Virus genome (UHGV): UHGV-1493261
Direction: 5' to 3' (one strand)
Origin: a virus
DNA: 64,000 nt
Below the pieces are notes generated by a model, which did not search any database, was not told where the DNA came from, and saw nothing but the letters and a program-made list of their open reading frames with translations. Numbering within the stretch: the first letter of the stretch is position 1; every line of letters begins with the position of its first letter. Of the stretch, positions 1-53,299 are shown piece after piece. A program made the translations under genes and the position numbers.

Positions 1-2
1 TC

Positions 3-614
3 TTTAAACCACCCGTCGTAAAGGGGATCTACCCAGCACGAGGGCAAATCTACTACGTCAAAGGCTCCAATGGTAGCGGTAAATCCACTGTGCCGTCTCA
101 GCTGGCGGAGAGGGATCCTCAGGCGTATGTCGTGACCCATAACGGCAAGGTAATGCTGACTGTCTGTCCTTCGTTCAACGTGGTCTGTATCGGTAAATAT
201 GACAAGTCGAAGTCCAAGGGGGTTGATTCCCTGAAGGACACTGAGCAGATGTTGTTCGCGTTGTCTATTGCTGACCAACCAGAATACTTGAAATATGATG
301 TGATTTTCGAAGGTATCATTCCATCCACATTATTGAGTTCTTGGATCCCCCGTCTGACACGCCCACCACGTGAATTGGTTGTGCTCTTTATGGACACTCC
401 TCTTGAAACGTGTATCACCCGCGTTAAATCACGTAACGGCGGTGTGGACTTCAATGAAAGTCTGGTGGTCGAGAAGTGGGAGAGAGTTCATGACCATCGT
501 CAACGACATAAAGACTTGTTCCCTACGGTGGCTGCGGGTATGATGAAGTCTCACGGCCTAACAGTAGACCAGGCTGTGATGGCATTCCTCTGTCGTGATT
601 TTGGGAGTATCTGA
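3..614 (+). CDS. P-loop NTPase/kinase, 5'-partial at window edge; candidate kinase of the thymidine-modification pathway
   Basis: Frame is open from nt 3; Walker A GSNGSGKST lies upstream of the first in-window Met. Stop overlaps the start of the next gene (TGATG). Confidence 0.55.
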   Translation, partial: FKPPVVKGIYPARGQIYYVKGSNGSGKSTVPSQLAERDPQAYVVTHNGKVMLTVCPSFNVVCIGKYDKSKSKGVDSLKDTEQMLFALSIADQPEYLKYDVIFEGIIPSTLLSSWIPRLTRPPRELVVLFMDTPLETCITRVKSRNGGVDFNESLVVEKWERVHDHRQRHKDLFPTVAAGMMKSHGLTVDQAVMAFLCRDFGSI

Positions 615-1660
615 TGGAAATCAAAGCAATAAACAACAATGACATGCTGAAACAGGCTGTCTTGGCTATCCGTGAATTCGGGATCGAATCTGATCCTGGT
701 AATGCTGAAATCAATACTGATAGCACCCGCTTCCTTGATGGCGTGACCATAACCGTCGCCGACATCCGTGACCGCTGGCTATCCGTTGAAGGTCGTAACT
801 CATCGGCTATCGCCGCCATCGGCGAGACCTTCTGGGTTCTGTCCGGGCGCGATGACGTTCGCTTCCTGTCCCGCGTGTTGCCCCGCGCCGCCAACTTTTC
901 CGACAACGGCCACACATGGCGAGCTGCTTATGGTCCGCGTCTGTACGCTCATGGTCAGCTGGATAGCGTTATCAACCGCCTGCGCAAGAATCCAAACACT
1001 CGCCAGGCGTACCTCACCATCTATGATCCGGCTCTGGATTCAGATGCTGGTCTGGCGAAGTTCAGTGAGAGTGGCGAAGCAAAGACCAAGGACATGGTGT
1101 GTAACCTGGCTCTGTTGTTCGCCATCGTTGAAGGTCGCCTGAACCTGACGGTTATCAATCGCTCACAGGATGTTCTGTGGGGTATGAGTTCAATCAACTT
1201 CATTGAGTTCTCTATTCTTCAGGAAGTGATTGCTCGGGTGTTGGATGTTGACGTCGGCCAGTACAAGCTCTTCTCCAACAATCTTCATTACTACAACAAT
1301 GAAGTCAGCCAGAAGCAGCTGGGCAAGATCACGAAGGACACCAAAGTAGAAGCTGGGTTCATCAACTCCATGATCCACTTCACGAACGTGACCAACCAGA
1401 ACCATATCCGCGATCTGTTCACTGGCGTGCTTGTTCATTGTGACTTCGGTAGCCCTTGGGAAACTGTTGTTGCCTTCCTGAAGGAGTATGATGCGGATCG
1501 CGGTCTGATTGTGCAGATGGCATACTGCCTGCACTGCAAATTGAATAACAAGCTCATTAACCTGGACCTGATTCAGGATCATGGATTGAACACCGCGCTC
1601 ACCCATTCTCCGGTTGACCGCAAGATCGTTGATCCTAAGTTCCTGGAAGGTGTAGTATGA
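614..1660 (+). CDS. Thymidylate synthase-fold pyrimidine hydroxymethylase (candidate dUMP hydroxymethylase)
   Basis: 348 aa. The segment DMVCNLALLFAIVEGRLNLTVINRSQDVLWGMSSINFIEFSILQ parallels the ThyA / dCMP-hydroxymethylase catalytic core (Cys nucleophile followed by the Q-R-S-x-D-V/F-x-G motif); TRQAYLTIYDP resembles the ThyA R-R-x-I motif. Confidence 0.65.
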   Translation: MEIKAINNNDMLKQAVLAIREFGIESDPGNAEINTDSTRFLDGVTITVADIRDRWLSVEGRNSSAIAAIGETFWVLSGRDDVRFLSRVLPRAANFSDNGHTWRAAYGPRLYAHGQLDSVINRLRKNPNTRQAYLTIYDPALDSDAGLAKFSESGEAKTKDMVCNLALLFAIVEGRLNLTVINRSQDVLWGMSSINFIEFSILQEVIARVLDVDVGQYKLFSNNLHYYNNEVSQKQLGKITKDTKVEAGFINSMIHFTNVTNQNHIRDLFTGVLVHCDFGSPWETVVAFLKEYDADRGLIVQMAYCLHCKLNNKLINLDLIQDHGLNTALTHSPVDRKIVDPKFLEGVV

Positions 1661-2226
1661 TGTACCCAAATCTTGAATTCTTTACGGGGCGCAAGCGTTC
1701 CGGTAAGGACTTCTGTTTGGAGTCCCTCATCAGATATCACCAACTACAGGGTGATATGGACATCCAGCGCCTTTCGTTCTCAGATGAACTGCGCCGGGTT
1801 GCCAACTTCATCTATCCATGGCTGCCAGCGGAGGTAGAGGATGCCGTGAAGGACGTTCCTTACGACCACCCTGATAACCCCAAGGGCTTAACCCCACGGC
1901 AGATCTGGCTTCATCTAGGCAGCGATACGGGCTTACGTTACGTACAACCCGATCTGTTCCTGGCGTTCTTCAAGCGCTTCCAGCTTCCTCTGGTAGAGCA
2001 GAACCCCCACGTCCATTATATCGTGAGCGATCTGCGTACCCCTCAGGAATATGAATGGGCGCTGAGTACGAAATGTCCTATCACCCGTATTTCAAAGGCC
2101 GATCGTGCTGGTATCATAGAGGACGATATAGAGGCTTTCATTGACCAAATGAAAGTGGACTACGAATTCCTCAATCCATTTGATGGTTGGGAACCGTTCG
2201 TTAAATTCTACGGAGAACGTAAATGA
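1657..2226 (+). CDS. Deoxynucleoside monophosphate kinase (T4 gp1-like)
   Basis: 189 aa. N-terminal FTGRKRSGKD matches the gp1 dNMP kinase P-loop (GxKRSGKD). ATGA overlap with the upstream gene. Confidence 0.6.
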   Translation: MMYPNLEFFTGRKRSGKDFCLESLIRYHQLQGDMDIQRLSFSDELRRVANFIYPWLPAEVEDAVKDVPYDHPDNPKGLTPRQIWLHLGSDTGLRYVQPDLFLAFFKRFQLPLVEQNPHVHYIVSDLRTPQEYEWALSTKCPITRISKADRAGIIEDDIEAFIDQMKVDYEFLNPFDGWEPFVKFYGERK

Positions 2227-2777
2227 TCACAGCAGGGCATATCAAAAGCCTGCTCGAACTCCAAAAGGCCACTAACGTGGCCTACTTTGGGGAAGAGTGG
2301 AAGAATGTATGGAGTCAGAACGCAGTTATCAACTCCATCTATCGTGAGTGGGCAGAGTTCCTTGATGAAACCACCCGTGACTGGAAGGTCTATGGCAACG
2401 ACATCGGGTTTGACCATACGAACGCAGTTTATGAACTGGTGGACGTGGTACACTTCATGTTGTGCTTCATCCTTGTGGACCGCACCAAAGGTGAGATCGA
2501 AGAAGAATTTGAAGTCCTGAGTAATCGCGAATTCACCCCATCTGCTTTGGGTGTTGTAGGGCATCGCAATGTTACGTACCGCCTTGGGCAATTCATGAAC
2601 GATCCTTGCGTTGAGACTCTCATGTTCTTCCTGTCGTCTGCGTGTTCTTATATGGAGATCGACATTGAGACTTACATACTGGCGCACAAACGCAAGAACG
2701 ATCGCAATCGTCTGCGTGCTTCTGGTGGTGCGGATTACGACAAGTCCGCAGAAACCCCTCTGACCCTGGAGTTCTAA
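2223..2777 (+). CDS. All-alpha NTP pyrophosphohydrolase (dCTPase/dUTPase gp56-like or MazG-like)
   Basis: 184 aa. Helical, acidic patches (EWAEFLDE, ELVDVVHF) typical of dimeric dUTPase/MazG-type NTP-PPases. Overlapping start couples it to the kinase. Confidence 0.45.
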   Translation: MITAGHIKSLLELQKATNVAYFGEEWKNVWSQNAVINSIYREWAEFLDETTRDWKVYGNDIGFDHTNAVYELVDVVHFMLCFILVDRTKGEIEEEFEVLSNREFTPSALGVVGHRNVTYRLGQFMNDPCVETLMFFLSSACSYMEIDIETYILAHKRKNDRNRLRASGGADYDKSAETPLTLEF

Positions 2778-3319
2778 TGTTTACAGTCGTCGTTTCATAC
2801 CATGCGGAGAACGCTGCTCAGGCATCCTCCAAATTCGCCGAGCACATCATCGGCGGCGGCCATAATGTATTCCTTACCGAATACAACAGGCCTGTTAAAC
2901 CGGGCGACGGTCTTTCGGCGACTGTTACGCATAAGATCGCCAGCGAGCAACCAGAGTCTCTGTTCAGAATGATCGAAGAGTATGCCAGTGGTGGCATCAA
3001 GATACCAGATGAACTGGTAGACGTTTATTTTGAAGGCTCGATCTATTATATCCACGCTATGCCAAAGGATGTAACCATTGAACAGATGATGTATATCCTG
3101 AATATAGCACTGAACACTGCGTGCATCAACCGCACGAACTACAACAATCTGCGCAATATGTACCTAACCGACCGACATAATGAAGCACCGTCACCTATTG
3201 AGACGATGTCCCTGAAGAGCATCCAAGAGGCGGTTAACATTTTGTCCCAGAAGGTTATGGGTGTAGACTTACTAACGACGATTAACAACAAAGAGGAAGT
3301 GAAATGGCCAGTTCATTAA
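2777..3319 (+). CDS. Hypothetical protein
   Basis: 180-aa ORF, co-directional; start overlaps the upstream stop. Confidence 0.5.
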   Translation: MFTVVVSYHAENAAQASSKFAEHIIGGGHNVFLTEYNRPVKPGDGLSATVTHKIASEQPESLFRMIEEYASGGIKIPDELVDVYFEGSIYYIHAMPKDVTIEQMMYILNIALNTACINRTNYNNLRNMYLTDRHNEAPSPIETMSLKSIQEAVNILSQKVMGVDLLTTINNKEEVKWPVH

Positions 3320-4389
3320 TGGACCGCATGCTGAAGGTTGCTAAGAAACACGATGACCAGGCTTCAGTGCTGTCCCAATCAGACGCTCTGGAACCGTCTA
3401 TCATCTGTTCTACTGGTATTCCCCTGATCGACATCGCATGGTCTGGGCGTATTGACGGCGGCCTGATCTCCGGTATCAAGATGATGGTGGGTGATTCCCG
3501 TACCTTCAAAACGATGTTCGGTCTGGTGGACGTCAAGGCGTACATGGACAAGTTCCCTGACGCTATCTGTGTATTTGCTGACTCGGAAAAGGGTGCCAAC
3601 GCCGATTACTGGACCTCTATGGGCATTGACATGGACCGCGTCCTGTACGTACCGATCGACAACGTTGAACAGACCAAGATCCGCTTGCTGCAGATCCTAC
3701 AGGAAGTCAAGAAAGGCGACCATGTTATAATCTTCATCGACTCTATCAGCCAACTTCCCTCCACCAAGGAAGTTGAAGATGCGATCAAAGGGAACGACAC
3801 TCAAGACATGACCCGCGCCCGTGCCCTCAACAGCTTCTGGCGTGTCATGACTCCCGAAATCAACAGCAAAAATCTCGTGTGTGTTTGGATCAACTCCTAT
3901 TACGATGAGATCGGCAACCAATATGCCGAGCCTAACATCAAAGGTGGCAAACAGGGCTTCTTATCCTCCAACTTGATCTGGTTTATCACCCGTTCTCAGG
4001 TGAAGGAAGACAAAGATCTGCTGGGCTGGAACTTCAACATAAGCATCATGAAAGGTCGCCATGTCAAAGAGAAAGCCAAGCTCCCTGTGACGGTACTGTA
4101 CAACGGTGGTATTGATCGCTGGAGCGGCCTGCTTGAGATCGCTCGTGCTCTGGGTTATGTTGATATGCCGTCTTCCGGCTGGTATGTGCGTACAGCCAAG
4201 GGTGGTTTCGATCCTGAGAAGGAAAAGAAATATCAGAAGCGTCAGATGGGTGATGATTTCTGGTATCCGCTGCTGGAGAATGTCAACTTCGCCGATGACG
4301 TGAAGAAAATGTTCGGTGTTTCTAACGGTACTGTTATGCCTGCTAACATGCTGGAGCAAATGGACCATGTTATTAACACAAGCGAATAA
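3304..4389 (+). CDS. uvsX: UvsX RecA-like recombinase
   Basis: 361 aa. Collinear with T4 UvsX: VCVFADSEKG vs VCLFYDSEFG; FIDSISQLPSTKEVEDAIKGNDTQDMTRARALNSFWRVMTPEINSKN vs FIDSLGNLASKKETEDALNEKVVSDMTRAKTMKSLFRIVTPYFSTKN. Confidence 0.92.
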   Translation: MASSLMDRMLKVAKKHDDQASVLSQSDALEPSIICSTGIPLIDIAWSGRIDGGLISGIKMMVGDSRTFKTMFGLVDVKAYMDKFPDAICVFADSEKGANADYWTSMGIDMDRVLYVPIDNVEQTKIRLLQILQEVKKGDHVIIFIDSISQLPSTKEVEDAIKGNDTQDMTRARALNSFWRVMTPEINSKNLVCVWINSYYDEIGNQYAEPNIKGGKQGFLSSNLIWFITRSQVKEDKDLLGWNFNISIMKGRHVKEKAKLPVTVLYNGGIDRWSGLLEIARALGYVDMPSSGWYVRTAKGGFDPEKEKKYQKRQMGDDFWYPLLENVNFADDVKKMFGVSNGTVMPANMLEQMDHVINTSE

Positions 4390-4696
4390 CAGTGGAGGGG
4401 GAGGAGACTCCCCCAATAACTACACAATCATCGACCCTGGTGCTGATCAGCTGGCGATTATCAAGATCACTTCTGGCAAATTCCGTGGAGTTCAATTCCG
4501 GTTCGGCAAGGTGGCCATCAACGAAGTGGACGGCGAACCCCGCCTGTCTTTCGTGACTGATATATTGAAGAAACCATTGCGTCTGATGTTTGTGAATTTG
4601 AAAGAAAATGACTTGTTCACTGAGGTGTCAGGGGATATCCTTGTAGATCTCATGCAGCGTAATGCTCAGGAATATAATAAATTTTTGGTGGGGTAG
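4367..4696 (+). CDS. Hypothetical protein (start uncertain)
   Basis: ORF-track frame begins with GTG at 4316 inside uvsX; first ATG at 4367. Contains a GGGGGAG-GAGA-CTCCCCC hairpin near its 5' end. Confidence 0.35.
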   Translation: MLLTQANNSGGGGDSPNNYTIIDPGADQLAIIKITSGKFRGVQFRFGKVAINEVDGEPRLSFVTDILKKPLRLMFVNLKENDLFTEVSGDILVDLMQRNAQEYNKFLVG

Positions 4697-4702
4697 TGGC
4701 CA

Positions 4703-6127
4703 ATGTTACTCGAATCTGTCGTGCTTTCACAGTTGATTTACAATGAAGATTACCAAAGAAAGATCCTGCCGTACCTGAAAGCCGATTATTTTGACAACGA
4801 AGGCGAAAAGGTCATCTTTGGTCTGATTGACAGTTATACCTCAGAGTACAATGCCCGCCCGTCTGTCGAAGCACTATCTATAATTCTTGAACGGACAAAG
4901 CTGAACGAATATGTGTTTGACCAGGCGGTATCTGCCCTGGAGAACATCAACGACAACACCTTCAATGAAGAGTGGCTGGCGAAGGAAACCGAGGCTTGGG
5001 CGCGGCAAAAGGCCGTACACAACGCAATCAAGACCGCCGTCAACATCTACGGTGACGAGAAGCGCAAGGACGAGATGAACAACATCCCGACCATGTTGCA
5101 GGAAGCCCTGGCGATCCGGTTTGATTCATACCTCGGTCACATCTATTGGGAGATGGCGGCAGAGCAGTATGACCACATGAACTCCAACGAGGCCAAGATC
5201 CCGTTCGCAGTTGAGATATTCAATAAGGCGACACGTGGTGGCGTTGGTAAGAAGACACTGAACATCGTAACAGGCGCGATCAACGCAGGTAAGACCACAA
5301 CGCTGATTGACCTGACCGCAGGGTACTCGGAGCAGGGGCTGAACGTCTTTGTCTTCACCCTTGAAGTGGCTGAGAACGTCTGGCGACACCGCCTTGATGC
5401 CCGTATCATGCGTCGCGACTTTGAGTCTTTAGAGAAACTCACAAGGCACGAGTATATTGCAACGATAGAGAAGCTCCGCAGTCGCCAAGATGGTGCGCCC
5501 AAGGGTGATATCGTCATCAAGGAATATCCTTCCGGTACTGGACACACAGGTTTATTCCGCCGCGATATCCTTGAGTACATCCAGGCAACTGGTCGTGCTC
5601 CCGATGTTATCGTTATTGACTATCTTGGCGAAGCTGCTTCCTCGCGCCTGCCTGCCCACCTGATGCAGAACACGAACGTCTATTACACGTCTGTGGCTCG
5701 TGAGTTTCGTGCGCTGGGATTTGAGTTTGATGTCCCTGTATGGACTGGTATGCAGTTCAATCGTGAGAATCAGAATAGCACTGATGGCGGAATCAGTGAT
5801 TTGGCAGATGCTATCGGTATTCCGAAGGTGGCCGACTTCATCATGGCATTCTATGCTCCTGACGAACTGGCGGCGGTCAAGAAAGCCCGAGCCTCAATAC
5901 TCAAGAACCGTTATGCCAACAAGCAGAAGCTGAAATCATTCCTGTTTGGTATGGACCAAGACAAACAGATCCTGTTTGACCTGGACTGGAATGAAGTTAA
6001 GAAGGACCTGACTGAGGCTGAGGCCAAATATGTCGAAAACGTACACATCAAACATGACCTCAACAAGTCCGGGGCTGCTGCCAGCGATGAGCAGAAAGCC
6101 CAAACAGTCAATAATTGGAAATTCTAG
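4703..6127 (+). CDS. Replicative DnaB-like DNA helicase (T4 gp41-like)
   Basis: 474 aa. Walker A GAINAGKTT; N- and C-termini collinear with T4 gp41 (MLLESVVLSQLIYNEDYQRKILPYLKADYF vs MVEIILSHLIFDQAYFSKVWPYMDSEYF; ends NNWKF vs ANELKF). Confidence 0.9.
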   Translation: MLLESVVLSQLIYNEDYQRKILPYLKADYFDNEGEKVIFGLIDSYTSEYNARPSVEALSIILERTKLNEYVFDQAVSALENINDNTFNEEWLAKETEAWARQKAVHNAIKTAVNIYGDEKRKDEMNNIPTMLQEALAIRFDSYLGHIYWEMAAEQYDHMNSNEAKIPFAVEIFNKATRGGVGKKTLNIVTGAINAGKTTTLIDLTAGYSEQGLNVFVFTLEVAENVWRHRLDARIMRRDFESLEKLTRHEYIATIEKLRSRQDGAPKGDIVIKEYPSGTGHTGLFRRDILEYIQATGRAPDVIVIDYLGEAASSRLPAHLMQNTNVYYTSVAREFRALGFEFDVPVWTGMQFNRENQNSTDGGISDLADAIGIPKVADFIMAFYAPDELAAVKKARASILKNRYANKQKLKSFLFGMDQDKQILFDLDWNEVKKDLTEAEAKYVENVHIKHDLNKSGAAASDEQKAQTVNNWKF

Positions 6128-6130
6128 GCA

Positions 6131-6160
6131 ATTCAATAAAGCGGGTCATAGGGTATAATT
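6131..6160 (+). promoter_or_regulatory. Sigma70-like early promoter candidate
   Basis: TTCAAT (6132-6137), 16-nt spacer, TATAAT (6154-6159); AGGAG RBS and ATG at 6192. Confidence 0.35.
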
Positions 6161-6191
6161 CTATGATCTGAATGTAAACCAGGAGCACATC

Positions 6192-6527
6192 ATGTCACAC
6201 AATGATTTTATGGCTGGCCTGGTGCAGGCCGCCAAACAGGTGTGCCACACCAAACAAGCGATTGAGCTGAGTCCGGAGCAGACTCTGGAGTTCTTCAACA
6301 ATCGTAAAATCTGGGAGGAATATGGAATTGGTATGATATGCCAAGAGGGTGAACTCGTACAGCTGGATCTGCCGTCATTTCCCCTTCCAGTGCGCACCAA
6401 CACAGTGGAATGGTATACGACGGAAGATGGTGTAGAGATCATCCCGAAGTTCCAGTATCACTCAATCGTAAACTTCTTTTTACGCCGTTGCGGGACTAAT
6501 CTGATCCCACAAGGTATGAGATCTTAA
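6192..6527 (+). CDS. Hypothetical protein
   Basis: 111 aa; AGGAG RBS 6 nt upstream; TATAAT box at 6154-6159. Confidence 0.55.
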   Translation: MSHNDFMAGLVQAAKQVCHTKQAIELSPEQTLEFFNNRKIWEEYGIGMICQEGELVQLDLPSFPLPVRTNTVEWYTTEDGVEIIPKFQYHSIVNFFLRRCGTNLIPQGMRS

Positions 6528-6542
6528 CAAGAGGAACACCAA

Positions 6543-6857
6543 ATGTCTGTAGAACAAATCGGCTTTTATGTACTACCATCTGATCCTGAATCCCGTCGCA
6601 AGCTGATAGGTGCGATTGAAAACTGTCGTGCCGCCCAAGTCCGCATCAAGTCGGAACAGACTTTCATTACTGAGACTCTGGCCGAGCTGGCGAAAGACAC
6701 GGGTATCAAGGCCAGCGACTTGCGCAAGGTTGTATCCGACCGCGCCAATGGAACTTACCATAAGACGATCGAAACGAGCGAGAAATATCAAGACTTATAC
6801 GAGTCTCTATTCCCGAACGCCAAGCCCGATCGAGATCCGAATGCCAGTGGCGAATAA
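6543..6857 (+). CDS. Hypothetical protein
   Basis: 104 aa; followed by an intrinsic terminator. Confidence 0.55.
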   Translation: MSVEQIGFYVLPSDPESRRKLIGAIENCRAAQVRIKSEQTFITETLAELAKDTGIKASDLRKVVSDRANGTYHKTIETSEKYQDLYESLFPNAKPDRDPNASGE

Positions 6858-6875
6858 ATCAATAGAACACCAAGA

Positions 6876-6900
6876 AGCCCAGTCAAGTACTGGGCTTTTT
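6876..6900 (+). terminator. Intrinsic terminator
   Basis: AGCCCAGT-CAAGT-ACTGGGCT followed by TTTTT, after the stop at 6857. Confidence 0.65.
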
Positions 6901-6972
6901 AACTTCAATAACTTTACTTTCAAGAAATAATCGCCTAATATTTAATCTGTATTGAAGAGTTACAACTACATC

Positions 6973-8178
6973 ATGAGGCTGGAAATGAACGTCAAAACAT
7001 TCAATATTCCGATCGACAATGAAGGGTTGGTAGTTGAGCGACTGAAGAAGCTCGAGCGCACTGCCGAAAGGTTGGGTGTTCCGTTTCCGACTGTGACTTA
7101 TGGTGAACCCTTCAAAACCCACACCCGCGACTTCACTGGTGAGATCCTTACTCACTGGTGGAAACCTGTCACTCTCGAAGGCGAAGGCATTGACCACCCC
7201 ATCTCTTATGGTGGCTGGAAGATCATCGGTCAGTTCAATCACGAATATCCAAAGGTTATTCTTAACCGCCTGTCCGACAACATCAATCCTGACTTCATCC
7301 GTCGCTTCGAGACAGAGAACGTCTCTTGGTGTCAGCATTGCAATCTAGCCATCCGTCGCAAGAACACGTATGTGATTGAAAATGAGGAAACGCATACCCA
7401 GATGCTGATTGGTAGCACCTGTATGCATCATTATGTGCCTCATCAGAAATCGCTTGACGCGATTATGTCTTACTATCTGGAAATCCAAGAGTTCTTCATG
7501 CCAGACGAGGACGACCCAGAGGGTATATATCGCGTCCAAAATGAGCGCTTCACCGACACCCACAGTTACCTGCGCGCATGCTTCCAGGTGATGCTGGCAG
7601 GCGTGGATATCAAGTCTGAACTGTTTGACAAAGTACTGGGCTATGTCCGGTCTCATCAGAAACCAAAAGCAGGTTCCGATGAAGAGTATTTCGTAAACAA
7701 GGCACACGAATACCGTGAAGATGCCGAGTCGGAAATGTACCATATGAAGCTTTTCATCAGTGCGCTGTCCGAATCTAATGAGTTCAATGTTCGCCTGAAA
7801 CGCATGTGTGAACCCGGCTATCACCTCATCAAGGATAACAACACAGTCTGCTGGGGTGCCAAGAAGTATTACGATTACATCCATCGTCCTCGTACTGACC
7901 GCAAGGCGGAGAACAAATGGGTGGGTGAAGTCAGTGAAATGCTGGAAGTGCAAGTCAGATTCGACAAGCGCACCTTCCTCTTCTCCAATGAATATGGTGA
8001 TAGTTACCTGTTTACTTTCAAAACAGCAGAAGGCAATACAATTACCTGGAAGACCTCTTATATGGATACAGAGTTCTTGCAGGGCGATATGATCATCCGT
8101 GGTCGTGTCAAAGAACTGACTGAGTACAACGGCGTTAAACAAACTCAGGTCACCAGAGCCAAATTGAGGAAATTATGA
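6973..8178 (+). CDS. Hypothetical protein with Cys/His clusters
   Basis: ORF-track start 6952 is TTG; first ATGs are at 6973 and 6985. Contains CQHCN and STCMHH motifs. Confidence 0.5.
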   Translation: MRLEMNVKTFNIPIDNEGLVVERLKKLERTAERLGVPFPTVTYGEPFKTHTRDFTGEILTHWWKPVTLEGEGIDHPISYGGWKIIGQFNHEYPKVILNRLSDNINPDFIRRFETENVSWCQHCNLAIRRKNTYVIENEETHTQMLIGSTCMHHYVPHQKSLDAIMSYYLEIQEFFMPDEDDPEGIYRVQNERFTDTHSYLRACFQVMLAGVDIKSELFDKVLGYVRSHQKPKAGSDEEYFVNKAHEYREDAESEMYHMKLFISALSESNEFNVRLKRMCEPGYHLIKDNNTVCWGAKKYYDYIHRPRTDRKAENKWVGEVSEMLEVQVRFDKRTFLFSNEYGDSYLFTFKTAEGNTITWKTSYMDTEFLQGDMIIRGRVKELTEYNGVKQTQVTRAKLRKL

Positions 8179-8288
8179 ATTTGATTGAGTTTGTTCTGAA
8201 GTCGTTCGCCTTTGGTCTGATAGCATGTGGGATGATTACAGCTATGCTTCTCGTCATAGCCCTGGTCATCCCCTTTAAGAGGAAATAG
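8175..8288 (+). CDS. Small hydrophobic peptide (37 aa, single predicted TM helix)
   Basis: Not in ORF track (below 60 aa). ATG overlaps the upstream stop (ATGA), GAGGAAA RBS; sequence MNLIEFVLKSFAFGLIACGMITAMLLVIALVIPFKRK. Confidence 0.4.
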   Translation: MNLIEFVLKSFAFGLIACGMITAMLLVIALVIPFKRK

Positions 8289-8290
8289 AG

Positions 8291-8491
8291 ATGAAACGTG
8301 AAATCATGGATGTGTACGAGCCAGGATCTTGTTGTCCTGGCCATGACAAGTATCCATCCGATACTTACAAGAATCGACGTTCCAAAGCGCAACGCTCCAA
8401 GAGCATTAAGAAGGAGCATCGCCACGCTCGTCGTGTCAAGCGTCTGGGGCTGAAATCTGACCTGAATACCATTACGCGGGAGGACTTTTGA
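8291..8491 (+). CDS. Hypothetical small basic protein
   Basis: 66 aa, Lys/Arg-rich; AGAGGAAA RBS. Confidence 0.5.
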   Translation: MKREIMDVYEPGSCCPGHDKYPSDTYKNRRSKAQRSKSIKKEHRHARRVKRLGLKSDLNTITREDF

Positions 8492-8703
8492 TGGAATGTT
8501 CATGCGGAGGGCAGGGCACAAGTGCCTACATGCCATTCACCACTGTGAAGGAAGCCGAAGCCGCTGGATTTGCCGTGGACAAGGCTCCCTGTGTAATCGC
8601 CACGAAGGATTGCCCGTGCTGTAAGAGGCACTCTCAGGACGTCTTCTACGCCCCTGATGCGCGTCCGGCTACGGTCAACCTGCTCTCACTGATGAGGAAG
8701 TGA
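8488..8703 (+). CDS. Hypothetical Cys-rich small protein
   Basis: 71 aa with CSCGG and CPCC motifs; ATGA overlap with the upstream gene. Confidence 0.45.
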   Translation: MMECSCGGQGTSAYMPFTTVKEAEAAGFAVDKAPCVIATKDCPCCKRHSQDVFYAPDARPATVNLLSLMRK

Positions 8704-8826
8704 CATGATAAAGTTTATCGACTGGTTGTTCTGTATACCGCCGCTGAGTGCTGAGATCCGTTCCCTGATAATATATTGAAGTCTCTGGGGTTATAATAGC
8801 ATCACATATAACCCTGGAGACACCAC

Positions 8827-10257
8827 ATGATCCCTATCCTTGAAACAGTCCACCGACTTCGCGAAACCAAAGGCAGCAATGCGAAGAAAGCCGTGCTGAC
8901 CGAAGCATTCAAGAACAACCCAGACTTGGCAGACTTCCTGCAGTATGTCTATGACCCAATGACGTCGTTCTATCGGACTGAGTTGAAGCTCAGCGCGTAC
9001 CCTCGCATGCTCGTCCGTGAGAAGACCGATGACATTAGCGAAGTCTATGGCGTCCTCGACCAGATGGCGCAGCGCCTTGTCGGTGGCCAAAAGGCTGATG
9101 CCCTGTTGGCCTCTGTCGCCCTGAAGATGGATCCCCAATACCACGAACTCATTCAGATGATCCTAGACCGTGATATCAAGGCGGGTATCGCTGAGAAGGG
9201 CATCAATGCAGCGTTCAAAGCAGCGGGTGGCACAGGCCGACTGATCAACATTCTTCCGTATCATCGTTATGACAACATGACGATTGACCTGCTGAAGAAG
9301 ATGGACTTCAAGCGTGGTGTCTACAGCCAGCTGAAGTCAGACGGTATGTTCGCCAACATCATATGTCGGTACAATAAAGAGCCTGAGATTCGCTCTCGAT
9401 CCGGTTCCCTTATCGCAGGCGGTTCGGTTGACAACCTGTCACTGGTGTTCAAGGACATCATCTACGATGCGGGGATTGGTGAGAGTGTGTTCCATGGTGA
9501 ACTTCTCGTTGTTGACCTCAAGTCGAATACCATCCTGCCTCGTGCTGTCGGTAACGGTAAACTCAACAGCGTGATTCAGACAGGAGAACCCCTAGAAGAT
9601 CGTTATCGGGTGATCTACCGGGTGTGGGATGTTGTGCCGTATGAACAATGGTTCAACGCCCAGCGCGTGGATACCCCGTATGAGCGCCGCTTCGATATCA
9701 TCCAGCAACTGTTTGATGAAGACGACGGTCTGGTTCAGGTTCAGGAAACTCGTGTTGTTCACTCATTTGCCGAAGCCGTCGACCACTTCAAAGACGCGCT
9801 GGCTCGCAAAGAAGAAGGCACGATATGTAAGGCCGCAGACATGCCGTGGGAAGATGGTACTTCTTCTGAAGGTCTGAAGCTGAAGATGGAGGTTGAGTGT
9901 GACCTTGAAATCGTGGGCTTCAACGAGGCCGACAAGAAGGGTAAACACGCCAAGACTTTTGGCTCACTGATTTGTAAAACTTCCGACAGCCTGCTTGTTG
10001 TTGGCGTATCAGGGATCTCAGATGAGCTGAGACGCCATATGTGGGAGAACCAGGGCGATTACATTGGCAAGATCGCCGCAGTGCTCTCCAATGGCGTACA
10101 GGACAAGACAGACGATGCGATGAAGTCTTTGTTCCTACCTCGCCTTGTAGAAGTCCGCATTGACAAGAAAGTGGCCAACACACTGGATGAAGTCTATGCG
10201 ATACAGAAAGCGTACATCGAAAACATCGCATTCCTGTTGGAGAAGGGAAATGGGTGA
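8827..10257 (+). CDS. ATP-dependent DNA ligase (T4 gp30-like)
   Basis: 476 aa. Adenylation motif I KSDG (K-x-D-G); motif IV-like EEGTICK; motif V-like LKLK. Confidence 0.8.
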   Translation: MIPILETVHRLRETKGSNAKKAVLTEAFKNNPDLADFLQYVYDPMTSFYRTELKLSAYPRMLVREKTDDISEVYGVLDQMAQRLVGGQKADALLASVALKMDPQYHELIQMILDRDIKAGIAEKGINAAFKAAGGTGRLINILPYHRYDNMTIDLLKKMDFKRGVYSQLKSDGMFANIICRYNKEPEIRSRSGSLIAGGSVDNLSLVFKDIIYDAGIGESVFHGELLVVDLKSNTILPRAVGNGKLNSVIQTGEPLEDRYRVIYRVWDVVPYEQWFNAQRVDTPYERRFDIIQQLFDEDDGLVQVQETRVVHSFAEAVDHFKDALARKEEGTICKAADMPWEDGTSSEGLKLKMEVECDLEIVGFNEADKKGKHAKTFGSLICKTSDSLLVVGVSGISDELRRHMWENQGDYIGKIAAVLSNGVQDKTDDAMKSLFLPRLVEVRIDKKVANTLDEVYAIQKAYIENIAFLLEKGNG

Positions 10258-17838: not shown

Positions 17839-18348
17839 TTATTTGTCAGGGTTCACTAAAACAGGGGTGGATACCAGTTCGCCGTTCTTCACAGAATGCT
17901 GGACTACAACAAACTGATCGACCATGCGATATACTTCAATTCCAGCAGCCAGCATGTCAATAATACCGTCTATGATACGATATGGTCGGTCATAGAACAC
18001 TTTAGCGATCTTGCCACTGTCGATAATACGACGGGTGCACTCTGGGCATGGACTATGAGTGACAAACATCACCAGGCCACAACAGTCTTCGGTGTGCTGG
18101 GGGAGTTTGCTCAGAGCATTCTCCTCGGCGTGGATAACACCAACCGATACCAGTTGACCGTCTACTTCCTTCTCACAGACATTAGGAGCGCCAGGAGCAG
18201 TCCCGTTCCAACCGATAGACAGGGGCTGGTCAACACGCGGGTCAACGATAACACAGCCGACCTTCAGGCGCTGGGCATAGCTGGACAGAGCGTATGCATG
18301 AGCCGAGCGCATATGCGCAAACAACATACGGGGTTTGATAGCCATCAC
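17839..18348 (-). CDS. dCMP deaminase (cytidine/deoxycytidylate deaminase family)
   Basis: 169 aa. Zinc-binding HAEENAL and PCPEC motifs. Confidence 0.85.
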   Translation of the reverse strand: MMAIKPRMLFAHMRSAHAYALSSYAQRLKVGCVIVDPRVDQPLSIGWNGTAPGAPNVCEKEVDGQLVSVGVIHAEENALSKLPQHTEDCCGLVMFVTHSPCPECTRRIIDSGKIAKVFYDRPYRIIDGIIDMLAAGIEVYRMVDQFVVVQHSVKNGELVSTPVLVNPDK

Positions 18349-27080: not shown

Positions 27081-27662
27081 TTATAGACCAAATTTGCTGC
27101 GCCACTTTTCAACCTTGTGTTCAATAGCGTGCTCCACTTTAATGCGAGTGGCCATCAAAGAGGAGCCACGGATCGCCCCTTCCCCACACCCCATGCGCGC
27201 AGCATGCTTGATTAGGTCATTGACAAGATGATCCAATCTGTCTTGACTGCGATAAGGCTGGTTGCACAATCGGATAATCCGGCCATGATAATGATGGATA
27301 AGATTCAGATGCTTTTGAGGATCACGATCAATCAGACGGAACCAGTCTTCTTCCAACAGATTAGAAGAAATATCGTTCACCGTCGCCATGTGGTTGATGA
27401 CAGAGTCGATCATTTCGACCTTGTTCAGAGAGCCGCGCATTTGGACGTCGTCATAATCCATGACGTACATAAGGTCAATGGCAGAGATAATGACATCAGC
27501 AACTTCGCCATTCAACGGCTCGGAAGATGCTATGCCATGAAACACATCAGACAGTTCACAGATCTCTTCACCTAGTTTGTTCAGAACAAACACAGGCGAA
27601 CGGTCTGGGGTATGAGCAGTGCAGTCATAAGAAGTGTCGACGATAGTGTGTAGAAATTTCAT
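27081..27662 (-). CDS. MazG-like nucleotide pyrophosphohydrolase
   Basis: 193 aa; LNKLGEEICELSDVF matches the MazG E-E-x-x-E-L core. Confidence 0.5.
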   Translation of the reverse strand: MKFLHTIVDTSYDCTAHTPDRSPVFVLNKLGEEICELSDVFHGIASSEPLNGEVADVIISAIDLMYVMDYDDVQMRGSLNKVEMIDSVINHMATVNDISSNLLEEDWFRLIDRDPQKHLNLIHHYHGRIIRLCNQPYRSQDRLDHLVNDLIKHAARMGCGEGAIRGSSLMATRIKVEHAIEHKVEKWRSKFGL

Positions 27663-39875: not shown

Positions 39876-41111
39876 TCAGCGTTTCAAGAGTGCCATGAGG
39901 TTGACGCTGCTGGACTTCGGCTTGTCCTCAACCTTGCGCACAGGCATCTTCAGGTTCGTACATACCTCGGATGGTTCCCAGCGCGTACCCTTTTGCAGGT
40001 GCCAGATATGCAGAGGAACACCAGTCTCAAAGAACACAGGCATCTTCCACTTCTGGACGCCTGGAACGTGCCCTGCAGGAGCCTTTTCACATAACAGGGT
40101 ATCTGGCAGCCAGAGCGAACGGGCTTCCCAGAGCGCTGCGCAGGAGTATTCAGGCCAGACGCGTTCCATGTAGTCTATCTCATCCCAGGTACGCTCTGCG
40201 TCCCACCCGATGTAACGGGTATTCTTCAGTCGGAAGAATTTCTTCAGCCAACAAGCACCGGAGGTTTCAAAGTTCAGGCGGTTGATGAACGTCAGGTGCC
40301 CGAACTCAGCCACACAATCCTGGAACGCCTGCTCAAGGTCGGCCTCAAGGATGTCACACTCTTCATCCGTGATAGGACAACCGTTGATCTTTTTCTTCCC
40401 GTGCTTGGTCACCCAATCGTCACGGTTGGACAAGAACGCCGCACCGTTGCGGTTGGACTCGCTTCCATCACGATCACGCAGCATGAAGCCAGGGACGTCA
40501 ATGGTGTATTCGTTCCCGAAGACCATGTTCAGGGCTTCCAGGAAGTTCCAGGCGCTCAGGCGACCGAAGTATTTCCAGGACATCGCCGTGTCCCACAGCT
40601 GGGTGAATTGTTCTGTCTTATCGATGCACACCAACATCCCACGGAAAGCGTCATATTGAGTACGACCAGCCAGCCAGTCAATATAGGACTGAACACACGG
40701 AATCATCTTGGACTTGCGGTAGCGACAGTCAGTATCGAATCGCATGCGTTCAAAGTTCAGGTTGTACCAGTCTGAGAAGCGCTGCATCTCTTCCTTAGAC
40801 TGAGGCGGCACAGGGAACTCACTGTAGATAGTCCACGGCCCGACGGCGTTATAGCAACAACCCCACAGGAATGCCATCCAGATCTTGCGCTCGACTTTCT
40901 GTTCGAGGCTGATGCCTTCAGTGACTTCGATCGCATAGTCCATCAGACGCATCTGCTGGTTGTGCTCTTCTGTGTAGGACAGCGCCTCCACCCAAGCCTT
41001 GAGCAGGTACATGCGATTCTCAGGTTTACGGTAGTCAACAGCTAGGTCAATCGGGTACTTCCATTCAGTAGGAGGCGTATAGCCCGTCGGCATTTTAGAT
41101 AGATGCGTCAT
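39876..41111 (-). CDS. Hypothetical protein (candidate DNA-modification enzyme by neighbourhood)
   Basis: 411-aa ORF adjacent to a P-loop kinase; no motif recognised. Confidence 0.5.
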   Translation of the reverse strand: MTHLSKMPTGYTPPTEWKYPIDLAVDYRKPENRMYLLKAWVEALSYTEEHNQQMRLMDYAIEVTEGISLEQKVERKIWMAFLWGCCYNAVGPWTIYSEFPVPPQSKEEMQRFSDWYNLNFERMRFDTDCRYRKSKMIPCVQSYIDWLAGRTQYDAFRGMLVCIDKTEQFTQLWDTAMSWKYFGRLSAWNFLEALNMVFGNEYTIDVPGFMLRDRDGSESNRNGAAFLSNRDDWVTKHGKKKINGCPITDEECDILEADLEQAFQDCVAEFGHLTFINRLNFETSGACWLKKFFRLKNTRYIGWDAERTWDEIDYMERVWPEYSCAALWEARSLWLPDTLLCEKAPAGHVPGVQKWKMPVFFETGVPLHIWHLQKGTRWEPSEVCTNLKMPVRKVEDKPKSSSVNLMALLKR

Positions 41112-41647: not shown

Positions 41648-42565
41648 TCACCCCTTCTTCATCAGGTCAAGGAGAGAGCGCGACGCTGCCTTCGTTGCTT
41701 CTGGCTGGGCGCTCGCCTTGGTTTTAGTTTTGGATGCCTTCTGTGGCTTCTCAGGCACTCTGTGCGCCAAAGGATCCTGGCCGCCGATTTCACGAGTCAT
41801 CGGATTGGTTTCACAGTAGGCGTAAAAGTCTTTGGTGTCCATGTTAACTTCACGCAGTTCGGACCGTATCTGATGACAAATCGCATTACCCACAACCCAC
41901 AGCGGGGCGTCGTATGGGAGCACCGCCAACTCGGACTGCTGTTTGGTCGTGAACTCCTGGGTGTTGGTCTCTGGCGCTTTATACAGGATATCCTGTCCGC
42001 TGTAATCATCAACAGCCACAGTGAAGCCCAGCGCCAGCATTTCGGCCTTCGACTTCTCAAACTCCTTGGAGTAAGATTCGTTGCGCGACCAGCCGGAGTT
42101 CCCTGCTTCTTTACCAGAGCGACCACGGATACGAGCATCGTACTGATAGCGGTCGGGGTACGCAAAGTACAGCAGCGCCAATGATTCAATCGGATAGTTC
42201 TTGAACATCCATTCAGGACGCCATTTGTCCGATAGCATGAGGGGTTCTCCATCACACACCAGAGTGTAACCCTGAACCAACCAGCACTTGATTAGATCAC
42301 GAGCAATATCGCCTGAGCCTGTAGCAGCATGGATTGCATCCATTGAAGTCCAGGAAGCCAGGCCGGATTTGTTAGACACGGTGTACTGTCCAACGAAGAT
42401 TAACTTCAGCTCTCCGAACTTCAAGCCAAACGGGCGAGTCTTGTCACCAACGGTGTAGGTCAGTTCGGTAGGCTCCAGCTTAGTGCGCAGCCATTCGATG
42501 AACTGGACAACACGGGTGCCCTTACCCGTACCGCTGGTTCCTTTCACTACGATAATTTTTGCCAT
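41648..42565 (-). CDS. P-loop kinase (candidate 5-hydroxymethyl-dU DNA kinase)
   Basis: 305 aa. Walker A GTSGTGKGT at the N-terminus; Lys-rich C-terminal tail. Confidence 0.5.
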   Translation of the reverse strand: MAKIIVVKGTSGTGKGTRVVQFIEWLRTKLEPTELTYTVGDKTRPFGLKFGELKLIFVGQYTVSNKSGLASWTSMDAIHAATGSGDIARDLIKCWLVQGYTLVCDGEPLMLSDKWRPEWMFKNYPIESLALLYFAYPDRYQYDARIRGRSGKEAGNSGWSRNESYSKEFEKSKAEMLALGFTVAVDDYSGQDILYKAPETNTQEFTTKQQSELAVLPYDAPLWVVGNAICHQIRSELREVNMDTKDFYAYCETNPMTREIGGQDPLAHRVPEKPQKASKTKTKASAQPEATKAASRSLLDLMKKG

Positions 42566-44059: not shown

Positions 44060-45641
44060 TCAACCTTTCTTCTTTTGCATCATGGCAAGAAGGTTCACAC
44101 GGCGCTTGTGTGACCAGCCGACCACGTCGAGGATAGACTGAATCGGATCAATGAAGGACTTCTCAAAGGCCGCCTGATAATCCACCCATTTGCCCAGACC
44201 AAGCTCCTCAGGGAAGAACTCAGGATATGCGAAGTAATTCTGGCCGAATGGGTTGCCCGGCTTCAACAACACCATCTGTACCTTATCACCAGACTCGATC
44301 ATCGGTAGACCCAGATCTTCGTTCTTCTCAACCAGACGGTTGTAACCCACACAAGCCTTGGCAGCAAAATGAGCACCAGAGATGAACGATCCGTCAGCAG
44401 CCACACACTTCTCTATGTCGGACACGCCTGACGCCTTGGCGATATCGTCTACAGAGAGTTTCATGTACTCCTCTTTGTACTGGGAGATGAGCGTCTGCAC
44501 TTCCTCTTCGGTGCCGAGTAGGATCTTCTCATAGCACTTAACAAGACGCTCACGACACCATTCCGGCGTGGTGGACTTGCGGGCTTCCAGACCTTTGAAC
44601 TTGATCTTCGGCTTCTCGTACTTGATACCCTCACTGTCGTACACGGCCATGGCATACATCTTCTTGGCTCGCCAGACAGCGGCTGACGCAATGACCTCAC
44701 GCTCCCATACCATGCGCTGTTCAAATCCGTTCATGGTGTTACACAGAAGCTGTGCCCACTCATTGGTCTTCGGCTGGTAGTTGTCTTTGATCCATTGGTC
44801 GATATTATCAACCATAGCATGATGGTCAGTAACATCAGGCCACAACTGCTTGACAAGACGCTCAATGCAGATGTAGTTGGAGTCGGTATCCCCTGCGATG
44901 ACGAAGTCCTGGCCTGTTGTACCACACAGCTTGTTCAGATAGTCATCAGTGTAACGCTTGTTCCACTTGTTGATCAGCTGACCGGATGTGGTGATGGCTT
45001 CGGCAATGTTGAGGTTGAAGTACTCTTTGAACCAGACGTTCGAGATAGCGCCATAACCTGCGTTCATCAAGATCTTCAGACCTTGCTGTAGGGTGTCTTG
45101 AGCAACACCCAGATCTTCCCACTTCTTCATCACTTCGGTCAGGGCATCAAGATCAATGTTCTTGTGCTCTTCATACCACTCTGGGTCATAGTAGCGAGAC
45201 TTCATGGCAGACTCAAGATGGAAGTCGCCCTTCGACATCTCTTTACACCAGCCAGCCCACTGCTCATACTTCAGACCCTTGGCCTTCTCTACTTTACGGT
45301 CGCTGTAGATACCACGCATGATTTCAGACAGGAACGACATCTTCTCGTTGCTGAAGAATTGAACGTTCGGCGTGAACGACACGTTGTAGCGGCGCAGGGT
45401 TTCAAAGTGGAACTCACCCAGGGCAACCAACTCATCAACAACCTGCAGGCGTTCGTCAACCGCACGCAACAGCTTGTCGTGAAGGGCTTTCATCAACCGA
45501 CGTTTGTGCATCGGCGTTGCCATGTTATTCATCTGAGCAGCCAGCTCTTCACACATAGCCTCAATAATCTCACGGCGCTGGTGTTTGTCGCCAACGATAG
45601 TCTCTGGACCGAGGTTGTACTGCTGAATGATGTGTGGATAT
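44060..45641 (-). CDS. DNA polymerase (family B, T4 gp43-like), exon 2
   Basis: Begins YPHIIQQYNLGPETI (completes motif A; T4 SLYPSIIRQVNISPETI). Motif B KILMNAGYG; motif C VIAGDTDS. The first 16 codons of the ORF-track ORF are assigned to the intron. Confidence 0.8.
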
Positions 45642-46824: not shown

Positions 46825-48242
46825 AGGGAGTTCAAATCTTCCGAGAAGACCCAGAAGTAGATTCCTGGTGTCACATCCATGACGTATGCACCCTCAAAGT
46901 CGGTCGGACCATCGTATACACGCTGGATCTTAGGCACTATCCCCTTCTCATACAGGCGATAGTAGCACATGGCCAGCCACGGAGCCACAGTGCCCAGACC
47001 GTCTTCATAGTTGGACTTGGTGCGGTACGCAAGGACGAACATCAGCTGGAGCAGACGCAGCTTCTGTTCAAGTCGCCATACCAGCTTAACGTCTTTGATA
47101 CCATATCGGGTGTGTTTGCAGTAGTCGTTGAAGTACAGATCAAAGAGCGACTTGCTCTCACTGTAGTCCATCTTCTTCTCACCCAGCTCACAATACGCAA
47201 TCCAGTCAAGAGAGTAGCGTTCACGGGTGGTGTACGTGTGTTTCTTGTAGATCTGCATATAATCGAGCATAGGGCAACCCACGAACTGATACGTCGTGAT
47301 GTCACCCTTCTTATCACGGATGATGCGCTTCTTAATGATGCCCCAAGGACTGAGGCGCGACGTTTCAGCCTCACCCAGAACCTGATTCATGCGCTCAACA
47401 AGATAAGGGCTATCAAACGTCTCAATGTTCCAGCCAGTCCATCCGTCGAACTGACGCTGTGACCAGAAGTCTAGGAACGAGCGCAGCAGATCTTGTTCGG
47501 TGGTGAACTCCTGATAAACAACCTCAAGGCCGCCGATCTCTTTGTCTTCGGTGTCATATGCGAACTTATTGCGGTCTTTGGCACAGGGCATACCCCAGAC
47601 CATGAACTTATTGGTCGCCATATCCTGAAGCTGGATCAGGGTAATGGGGAACGCCGCATTCATGTCTTGGGTGATCTTGCCGTTGCTGTCAATGATAGGG
47701 AACTGATCAGTGACGTTGTTGCTGATGAAAGAACCAGGGAAGTGCTCACGGACAAAATCATGGTTGGCCAGCACTTGTTTATGGAAGCGGCGAATGCGCG
47801 CCTCATTCCCTTTGAACGTCTGCTGCTCAATGGTTGGGTGAGGGAATGGACCTTTGGTCATCTTTCCGTCTTTCCACCCGGCGGAGAACACTTCGATATC
47901 GAGGTTAGCAATATGGATGTTGGTGTAATCCGGCTCAATCTTTCCAGGAAAGCTATGGGCGATGAACTGGTATGCATAATCGGTCTGCCCGTAAATGGCA
48001 GCACCCTGGACTTCCTTGTACTCTTCAAGATAGTTGTCAGCGTCACGCATGGAAGGGAACTGCTTGGCTACCAGGGGTTCATTGAGCAGGCCGACCTTTT
48101 CAACATTTGAATAGTCAGCCGTGGGTAAATAGAGAGTAGGTTCGAATTTCTTTTTCAACAGACGGCGATTACCCATGTCATCTGCAATTCGAATCAACAG
48201 GTCATTGCCCCTGCGGGCAACGTTCGTATAGAAAACGGTCAT
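46825..48242 (-). CDS. DNA polymerase (family B, T4 gp43-like), exon 1
   Basis: N-terminal 3'-5' exonuclease domain (Exo I ANLDIEV); ends in the first half of motif A (DLNSL). Confidence 0.8.
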
Positions 48243-53291: not shown

Positions 53292-53299
53292 TGAATATT

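Follow-up and report, generated by a model that had tools for sequence, protein, structure and literature searches.

Overlapping genes of an Aglimvirinae phage predicted to supply 5-hydroxymethyl-dUMP and to begin thymidine hypermodification in DNA

The virus genome UHGV-1493261, of which a 64,000-nt stretch was analysed here (the window), carries at bases 1-2777 a module of four overlapping genes, which encode a P-loop kinase, a protein with a thymidylate synthase (TS) fold, a deoxynucleoside monophosphate (dNMP) kinase, and a nucleoside triphosphate (NTP) pyrophosphatase. The question raised by this locus is what such a set of enzymes produces: ordinary thymidine nucleotides, hydroxymethylated cytosine as in phage T4, or a precursor of modified thymidine. 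Bases 1-6000 share 98.7% nucleotide identity with Escherichia phage AV101 (Ackermannviridae, Aglimvirinae; Agtrevirus-like) and match 275 phage records, whose hosts are nearly all Salmonella, Klebsiella, Escherichia, Dickeya, and Shigella. Very probably, the four genes constitute the pre-replicative nucleotide-pool arm of the Ackermannviridae thymidine-hypermodification pathway together with its first DNA-level enzyme, and the end product is 5-(2-aminoethoxy)methyl-2'-deoxyuridine (5-NeOmdU). An earlier note on this DNA, written from its letters, had suggested an enzyme acting on deoxyuridine monophosphate (dUMP) in a phage whose thymidine is replaced by bases that come from 5-hydroxymethyl-2'-deoxyuridine (5-hmdU); this suggestion fits both a base-contacting residue of the second gene product (Asn195, where T4 gp42 has D179) and the published chemistry of related phages (PMC3184105, PMC5889632, PMC8989533).

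The four open reading frames (ORFs) all lie on the + strand, at <1-614 (ORF1), 614-1660 (ORF2), 1657-2226 (ORF3), and 2223-2777 (ORF4), and their coordinates bear out the overlapping stops and starts that had been noted before, with overlaps of 1, 4, and 4 nt. The ORF1/ORF2 junction is TGATG with one nucleotide in common at 614, while the ORF2/ORF3 (1657-1660) and ORF3/ORF4 (2223-2226) junctions are both ATGA; purine-rich Shine-Dalgarno-like stretches (GGGAG, GGAAGG, and ACGGAGAA) stand 6-12 nt before each downstream start. ORF1 begins beyond the left edge of the window; its frame (frame 3) has no stop between base 3 and the TGA at 612-614, and, as judged from AV101, in which the orthologous coding sequence starts 46 nt ahead of window base 1, the gene is short by 16 codons. 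Overlaps are frequent in this genome: among 26 same-strand neighbour pairs within 18 kb of annotated AV101 sequence, 13 overlap, so that overlap alone is weak evidence for a functional link. The four-gene order and the overlapping junctions are kept in Salmonella phage ViI and in Vibrio phage K471, a conservation that goes beyond chance. Antisense ORFs of up to 159 aa within the module were dismissed as coding-strand shadows.

ORF2 (614-1660, +; 348 aa) is best read as a dUMP hydroxymethylase of the thymidylate-synthase superfamily with a C-terminal helical extension, a prediction that draws on Pfam and PHROG profiles, a residue map, and the predicted fold. The earlier note had seen in it a core common to ThyA and the hydroxymethylases, which is confirmed by a match to the superfamily-level PF00303 above the gathering score (57.5 bits). 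Beyond the superfamily level, seven NCBIfam equivalog models of ThyA all score far below their cut-offs (the best with 56.6 vs 327 bits), and on these curated scores ORF2 does not belong to classical ThyA (EC 2.1.1.45). Among the PHROGs, its own clade phrog_3676 scores 602 bits, followed by phrog_5131 (196 bits), the family of SPO1 gp29 and of the M6-like 'deoxyuridylate hydroxymethyltransferase' (dU-hmt), and by phrog_160 (90 bits), the family of E. coli ThyA and T4 gp42. The comparison of the 614-1660 product with hidden Markov model profiles that had been proposed as a check therefore comes out in favour of the SPO1 gp29 family.

ORF2 was aligned with ViI thyA, the M6-like enzyme, the classical dUMP hydroxymethylase SPO1 gp29, E. 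coli ThyA, and T4 gp42, and columns are given here in E. coli numbering. Ten positions for catalysis and dUMP binding are kept, namely E58, Y94, R126, C146, and R166 (E71, Y106, R130, C163, and R183 in ORF2) as well as S167, D169, N177, H207, and Y209 (S184, D186, N195, H225, and Y227). At the base-specificity position N177, ORF2 has Asn195, as do TS and gp29, whereas T4 gp42 has D179; the alignment is validated by the fact that this known Asp of gp42 falls in the N177 column. No exchange of N195 or C163 is seen in 55 homologs, even where identity is as low as about 25%. In TS, W80, W83, L143, and H147 together with the short C-terminal lid serve in shielding the reaction intermediate and in binding folate for hydride transfer, and W80 and L143 in particular shield the exocyclic-methylene intermediate from solvent. 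In ORF2, W80 is deleted, and W83, L143, and H147 are replaced by F95, D160, and N164, respectively, while an extension of about 110 aa takes the place of the lid. The same losses are found in ViI, the M6-like enzyme, and SPO1 gp29 (W80 deleted, W83 to F or Y, L143 to Asp, H147 to Asn), and Asp at the L143 position is also present in the cytosine hydroxymethylases T4 gp42 and MilA. By its shielding and folate residues and its missing short lid, ORF2 again falls outside classical ThyA, and the loss of W80 and L143 would fit hydration of the intermediate rather than hydride transfer. With its catalytic Cys, the Asn at the N177 position, the D-x-x-C-N motif, and a sequence closer to gp29 than to ThyA, ORF2 has the features of the SPO1 gp29-type (phrog_5131) subfamily.

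Pairwise and structural comparisons point in the same direction. In blastp, ORF2 is 34% identical to SPO1 gp29 (5e-31), 32% to the M6-like dU-hmt (6e-34), and 21% to E. coli ThyA (1e-12), with bit scores of 110-117 against gp29 and the M6-like enzyme (110 for gp29) and 55.5 against ThyA. Its best sequence match in the PDB is MilA, a CMP 5-hydroxymethylase (E=8e-18), with thymidylate synthases at 1e-8 or worse. For the AlphaFold2 model (pLDDT 94.3, pTM 0.93), the best fold match is again MilA, which aligns along 346 columns and thus also in the C-terminal helical domain (E=7.5e-19, TMq 0.72), while classical TS structures fit the core of the model only (TMq 0.52-0.56). Among close relatives, ORF2 is 100% identical to the AV101 protein, 95% to the PP35 homolog, and 75% to ViI thyA (Vi01_060c).

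According to the label 'thymidylate synthase', which most GenBank records give to ORF2-type proteins, the enzyme would make dTMP, and the module would be a generic operon for dTTP supply that combines a kinase, ThyA, a dNMP kinase, and a dUTPase. The PF00303 score above gathering and the mostly canonical thymidine of related virions agree with this explanation. However, the equivalog scores, the deleted W80 with Asp and Asn at L143 and H147, the extension in place of the lid, and the hydroxymethylases as nearest relatives in sequence and fold all speak against it, as does the gene directly preceding ORF2, which encodes a kinase not known to act on anything but 5-hmdU in DNA. As for another source of 5-hmdU, none of the TET/JBP type was seen, a search of the window for a second ThyA-family gene found none, and AV101 has a single ThyA-family place. 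In addition, the related phage CBA120 excludes exogenous thymidine. An ordinary thymidylate synthase is thus very improbable here.

Still less probable, to the point of being nearly negligible, is that ORF2 hydroxymethylates deoxycytidine monophosphate (dCMP) and that the module is a true T4-type hydroxymethyl-cytosine pathway. This explanation can refer to the common superfamily, to a genomic position upstream of uvsX and gene 41 that is like that of T4 gene 42, to partners in the gp1 and gp56 families, and to MilA, the best solved relative, which acts on CMP. The Asn195 residue speaks against it, since T4 gp42 and MilA have Asp at this place while ORF2 has Asn as in TS and SPO1 gp29, invariantly in the 55 homologs, which sets ORF2 apart from the dCMP/CMP hydroxymethylases. 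A blastp comparison with T4 gp42 gave no match, pairwise similarity being undetectable, CBA120 has no hydroxymethyl-dC substitution, and ViI-type DNA has modified T and not modified C (PMC3184105, PMC5889632). While the earlier note held that sequence alone does not reveal substrate and chemistry, the diagnostic residues combined with the gene context allow both to be predicted with good confidence, namely dUMP and hydroxymethylation.

ORF1 (1-614, +; truncated at its 5' end by the window edge) is a 5-hmdU DNA kinase (HMUDK/HMUD1). It matches Pfam PF18748, the 5-hmdU DNA kinase family, with E=1.9e-90 and 302 bits (cut-off 27), and it is 88% identical to its ortholog ViI gp67 (YP_004327432, Vi01_061c). 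The Walker A motif GSNGSGKS is intact in the partial product (residues 21-28), which is 100% identical to a protein of Salmonella phage vB_CECAV_050; a PDB sequence search returned generic P-loop noise only. Previous study showed that ViI gp67 transfers the gamma-phosphate of ATP to 5-hmdU in DNA in vitro, yielding 5-PmdU (PMC8989533). Of the 'P-loop kinase' described before, the kinase with a Walker A motif is therefore retained, but not a nucleotide kinase, since PF18748 proteins are 5-hmdU DNA kinases: ORF1 phosphorylates a nucleobase in DNA and works after replication. For this reason it has no counterpart in the analogy to T4 gp42, gp1, and gp56 that had been drawn for the module, and in T4 the DNA glucosyltransferase comes closest to it in function. 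The adjoining pair, a PF18748 kinase overlapping by 1 nt a TS-superfamily protein with predicted dUMP hydroxymethylase activity, is what a ViI-type 5-NeOmdU system contains.

PHROG 800 and RefSeq list the kinase family as 'terminase small subunit', and other records name it 'thymidylate kinase', 'baseplate hub', or 'hypothetical'. These functional labels are at odds with the kinase biochemistry, and the small terminase of ViI is a different protein (Vi01_162c). This annotation error is spreading through the databases.

ORF3 (1657-2226, +) is a dNMP kinase of the T4 gp1 type, predicted to convert 5-hmdUMP into 5-hmdUDP. It falls in phrog_139 (E=3.3e-47) over the same profile region as T4 gp1 (1.8e-65), and it is 90% identical to ViI dnk (Vi01_059c). 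The P-loop likeness to gp1 seen in the earlier note holds, with GRKRSGKD in ORF3 and GVKRSGKD in gp1, both of the unusual GxKRSGKD type, and both the gp1 family profile and this P-loop assign ORF3 to the gp1-type kinases. ORF4 (2223-2777, +) is an all-alpha NTP pyrophosphohydrolase of the dimeric-dUTPase type, likewise as proposed before, and is a predicted dUTPase and possibly also a dTTPase. It matches PF08761 (dUTPase_2) with 36.9 bits (cut-off 22.9), it belongs to phrog_173, the family of T4 gp56, and in the PDB it comes closest to the dimeric dUTPase of C. jejuni (1w2y, E=0.0013). The paired ExxE/ExxD motifs of this class are found as EWAE at 42 and ELVD at 71, which align with the acidic metal-binding motifs of 1w2y, and ORF4 is 61% identical to ViI Vi01_058c. 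Direct BLASTP to T4 yields motif-only matches for gp1 and gp56 (E=0.005), so the link to T4 rests on the common PHROG profiles. The CBA120 ortholog of ORF4 was proposed to act as a dTTPase/dTDPase too, by analogy with gp56, which would explain the non-incorporation of 3H-thymidine (Kutter et al., PMC3184105).

A second MazG-like NTP pyrophosphatase is located at 27084-27662 (-); it falls in phrog_1247 without a Pfam match, is 50% identical to ViI Vi01_011, and represents a further candidate for pool sanitation (perhaps as a dTTPase).

The other genes of the pathway are scattered over the window. A dCMP deaminase, which supplies dUMP, is encoded at 17842-18345 (-; tblastn 64% to ViI Vi01_030; PF00383 E=4e-16). 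An amino acid:DNA transferase of aGPT-Pplase clade 2 at 39879-41111 (-) is a homolog of the serine:DNA transferase ViI gp247 (90% identity; PF18724 ADDT, E=4.5e-60, 203.7 bits), and a second 5-hmdU DNA kinase (HMUD2) at 41654-42565 (-) is a homolog of ViI gp243 (85% identity; PF18747, E=1.3e-158). The pyridoxal phosphate (PLP)-dependent decarboxylase at 50451-51632 (-) is a homolog of ViI gp226, which converts O-SerT into 5-NeOmdU (92% identity over aa 30-423); its match to PF00291 is weak (E=8e-7, 29.2 bits, below the cut-off of 35). Both the gp247-type transferase and the gp226-type decarboxylase that mark the ViI-type system are thus present, and the activities of gp247 and gp226 have been demonstrated in vitro (PMC8989533). 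A family-B DNA polymerase, which must accept 5-hmdUTP, is encoded at 44060-48242 (-; tblastn to the ViI polymerase in two blocks, 85-88% identity).

From these genes the following route is proposed. The dCMP deaminase and ORF4 would supply dUMP and hold unwanted triphosphates out of the pool, with ORF4 splitting dUTP, possibly also dTTP, into the monophosphate and pyrophosphate. Cys163 of ORF2 would then attack C6 of dUMP, a one-carbon unit would be taken from methylene-tetrahydrofolate, and the exocyclic methylene intermediate would be hydrated instead of reduced, giving 5-hmdUMP and tetrahydrofolate. ORF3 would form 5-hmdUDP and the host nucleoside diphosphate kinase 5-hmdUTP, from which the phage polymerase would put 5-hmdU into DNA. 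After replication, ORF1 and its paralog at 41654-42565 would phosphorylate 5-hmdU in DNA to 5-PmdU, the gp247-type transferase would replace the phosphate by a serine hydroxyl to give O-SerT, and the gp226-type PLP enzyme would decarboxylate O-SerT to 5-NeOmdU. According to previous studies, the kinase, transferase, and decarboxylase steps were reconstituted with ViI enzymes (PMC8989533), and 5-NeOmdU stands in place of about 40% of T in ViI, CBA120, CBA6, and Vibrio phage 1.255.O (PMC5889632); in phiHS2, 16.4% 5-NeOmdU was determined by HPLC-MS (bioRxiv 10.64898/2026.05.19.726188). For the present phage, we infer what ORF2, ORF3, and ORF4 catalyse, and also that 5-NeOmdU is present.

Several points weigh against this proposal. 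E. coli R21 aligns to Gly29 of ORF2, in a column within a poorly aligned insertion, and R127 aligns to Gln131, so phosphate binding in ORF2 would differ from that in TS. For ORF3, the PDB gave no match at threshold and Pfam DNMK (PF21448) stayed short of E 0.01, so that the family-profile support for ORF3 comes from PHROG only. A homolog of ViI gp160 (aGPT-Pplase1) was sought in the window and not found. In the literature, we found no direct assay of any ViI-type ThyA homolog, dNMP kinase, or dUTPase-like protein, and the in vitro reconstitutions began with DNA that already carried 5-hmdU (PMC8989533). Moreover, 60-84% of the thymidine in virions of relatives is canonical T, whose origin is unexplained (PMC5889632 for SP10 and PhiW-14); with so much canonical T, dTMP synthesis might make a contribution.

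Nor did we find a nucleoside analysis of any Agtrevirus or Limestonevirus, and the authors of the PP35 study call the structure of its modification 'yet to be determined' (PMC6336734). The pre-replicative module could accordingly work as proposed while this Aglimvirinae phage ends with a base other than that of ViI, such as unprocessed 5-hmdU, O-SerT, or another adduct; related kinase-bearing phages do make other adducts (PMC8989533), and ORF4 and ORF5, with 61% and 56% identity, stand notably further from ViI than the adjacent genes do. This is quite improbable, however, as identity to the ViI enzymes is 90% for the transferase, 92% for the PLP decarboxylase, and 85% for the second kinase, and a ViI-like phage of Vibrio has the same 301-Da nucleoside (PMC5889632). 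5-NeOmdU therefore remains the preferred end product.

A more speculative extension, which we regard as unlikely, concerns the canonical T itself. Infected cells keep out exogenous thymidine, and replication is said to proceed at first with 5-hmdU wholly in place of T. If ORF4 were both a dTTPase and a dUTPase, all virion T might be made on DNA from 5-hmdU or 5-PmdU by some further activity, and co-translated products of the operon might choose between T and 5-NeOmdU sites, through the split between HMUDK1 and HMUD2 and/or the ACT-like protein at 2777-3319, possibly as a T4-like dNTP-synthetase/replisome complex.

The system as such is known, because the same argument has been published for CBA120 (2011), ViI (2018, 2021), and PP35 (2019). 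For CBA120, the argument consisted of a 'TS' clustering with dUMP hydroxymethylases, a neighbouring dNMP kinase, a dUTPase proposed to be a dTTPase as well, and the absence of 3H-thymidine incorporation (PMC3184105). A description of the kinase, along with its link to 'dU hmt', followed in 2018, ORF43 and ORF44 of PP35 (Aglimvirinae) were assigned as dUMP hydroxymethyltransferase and kinase (PMC6336734), and, according to a 2024 review, conservation of the genes extends across the family; curated Pfam families (PF18748, PF18747, and PF18724) now exist. The module had thus been recognised correctly in the earlier note but was already published. Its interest lies in the recovery of a real non-canonical-DNA pathway from raw sequence by a first-stage reader, and in the public annotation of the kinase and hydroxymethylase genes, which is still misleading. 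The predicted 5-NeOmdU affects restriction mapping and resistance to host nucleases in a phage group that is used in biocontrol and therapy, and it may also affect sequencing of such DNA.

The compact run of genes goes past 2777, through four further genes up to a gp41-type helicase. An ACT-like small protein (ORF5, 2777-3319, +) adjoins the module, with its start overlapping the stop of the NTP pyrophosphatase gene by 1 nt (TAATG); it is followed by uvsX (3304-4389, +), a small ORF (ORF7, 4367-4696, +), and the helicase gene (4703-6127, +). ORF5 and uvsX overlap by 16 nt, or by 1 nt if the alternative ATG at 3319 is used, uvsX and ORF7 overlap by 23 nt, and a 6-nt gap precedes the helicase gene. 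Given these overlaps, the four genes and the four downstream replication and recombination genes probably form one compact co-expressed unit, and we infer true translational coupling. A scan of 1-6400 revealed no sigma-70-like promoters or intrinsic terminators above shuffled background, and a repeat search of 1-3400 gave short, chance-like matches only. In AV101, the kinase gene is separated from the gene before it by a 75-nt gap that contains a 13-bp terminator-like hairpin at 5908-5936 (about 65-93 nt before window base 1), which suggests a transcriptional boundary just before the module.

In the DNA polymerase gene, the ORFs 46809-48242 and 44060-45688 are separated by a 1183-nt insert (45641-46823), which carries a 292-aa HNH-like ORF (45802-46680) and has Rfam group I intron matches of 31.2 and 17.4 bits, below the gathering score of 50. 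About 30 relatives share this insert, which bears the annotation putative intron I-LimII / HNH endonuclease in LIMEstone1, so this intron-like element is already known. A ViI QueC-like query had no match in the window. Finally, five tRNA genes are clustered at 52713-53520 (-; Rfam RF00005, 44-71 bits).

Among known systems, the closest is that of the Salmonella phage ViI (Kuttervirus), where the four genes (Vi01_061c-058c) stand in the same order with overlapping junctions and 88, 75, 90, and 61% amino acid identity, and where gp243, gp247, and gp226 have homologs here with 85-92% identity. Unlike ViI, which belongs to Cvivirinae, the present phage is a member of Aglimvirinae; divergence is greater in the C-terminal third of ORF2, in ORF4, and in the ACT-like gene, the polymerase gene has an intron-like insert while that of ViI is uninterrupted, and the base, measured in ViI, is a predicted one here. 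The Vibrio phage K471 possesses the same four genes, order, and overlapping junctions at about 38-43% amino acid identity. In K471, the whole hypermodification set lies within 9 kb (65-8913: HMUD2 (PF18747), ADDT (PF18724), HMUDK_hel (PF18723), HMUDK, the TS-like gene, dNMP kinase, and dUTPase_2), with HMUD2, the transferase, and the HMUDK_hel protein within 6 kb upstream of the four-gene block; in the enterobacterial phages, the same genes are spread over tens of kb.

More distant systems share single parts of this logic. The M6-like Pseudomonas phage (Yuavirus) encodes a dU-hmt from the subfamily of ORF2 (32% identity) and a homolog of HMUDK (about 30%), but it is a siphovirus without a contiguous four-gene module, and its product is 5-NedU, made via a glycine transferase, a radical-SAM isomerase, and a PLP enzyme (PMC8989533). 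The gp29 protein of Bacillus phage SPO1 resembles ORF2 (34% identity) in the D-x-x-C-N motif, N at E. coli position 177, an (F/Y)SDDG segment replacing that of TS W80/W83, and the long C-terminal extension; phrog_5131 is the second-best family of ORF2, and SPO1 follows a similar logic of dCMP deaminase, dUTPase/dTTPase, and dNMP kinase. However, the end base of SPO1 is 5-hmdU, HMUDK, transferase, and PLP genes are absent from it, its candidate dUTPase belongs to phrog_135, and there is no overlapping four-gene block. MilA of Streptomyces rimofaciens (PDB 5b6d/5jnh) matches the fold of ORF2 over its whole length and shares Asp at the E. coli L143 position, but it uses the ribonucleotide CMP in antibiotic biosynthesis, has Asp rather than Asn next to the base, and is about 21% identical.

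In T4, hydroxymethylation likewise takes place at the pool level and is followed by decoration of the DNA, there by beta-glucosyltransferase, and the PHROGs of gp1 and gp56 are common to ORF3 and ORF4. T4 differs in modifying cytosine (Asp179) and not uracil (Asn), in glucosylation as against phosphorylation followed by amino-acid transfer, and in its scattered genes for gp42, gp1, and gp56, to which pairwise similarity is undetectable for gp42 and motif-only for gp1 and gp56. The T4 gene order is 42, beta-gt, segA, uvsX, 40, and 41, and the window at 614-6127 runs from the thyA-like gene to uvsX, a small ORF, and the gp41-type helicase. By this T4-like order of the replication module, ORF2 sits at the position of T4 gene 42, and a DNA-modifying enzyme adjoins it in both phages.

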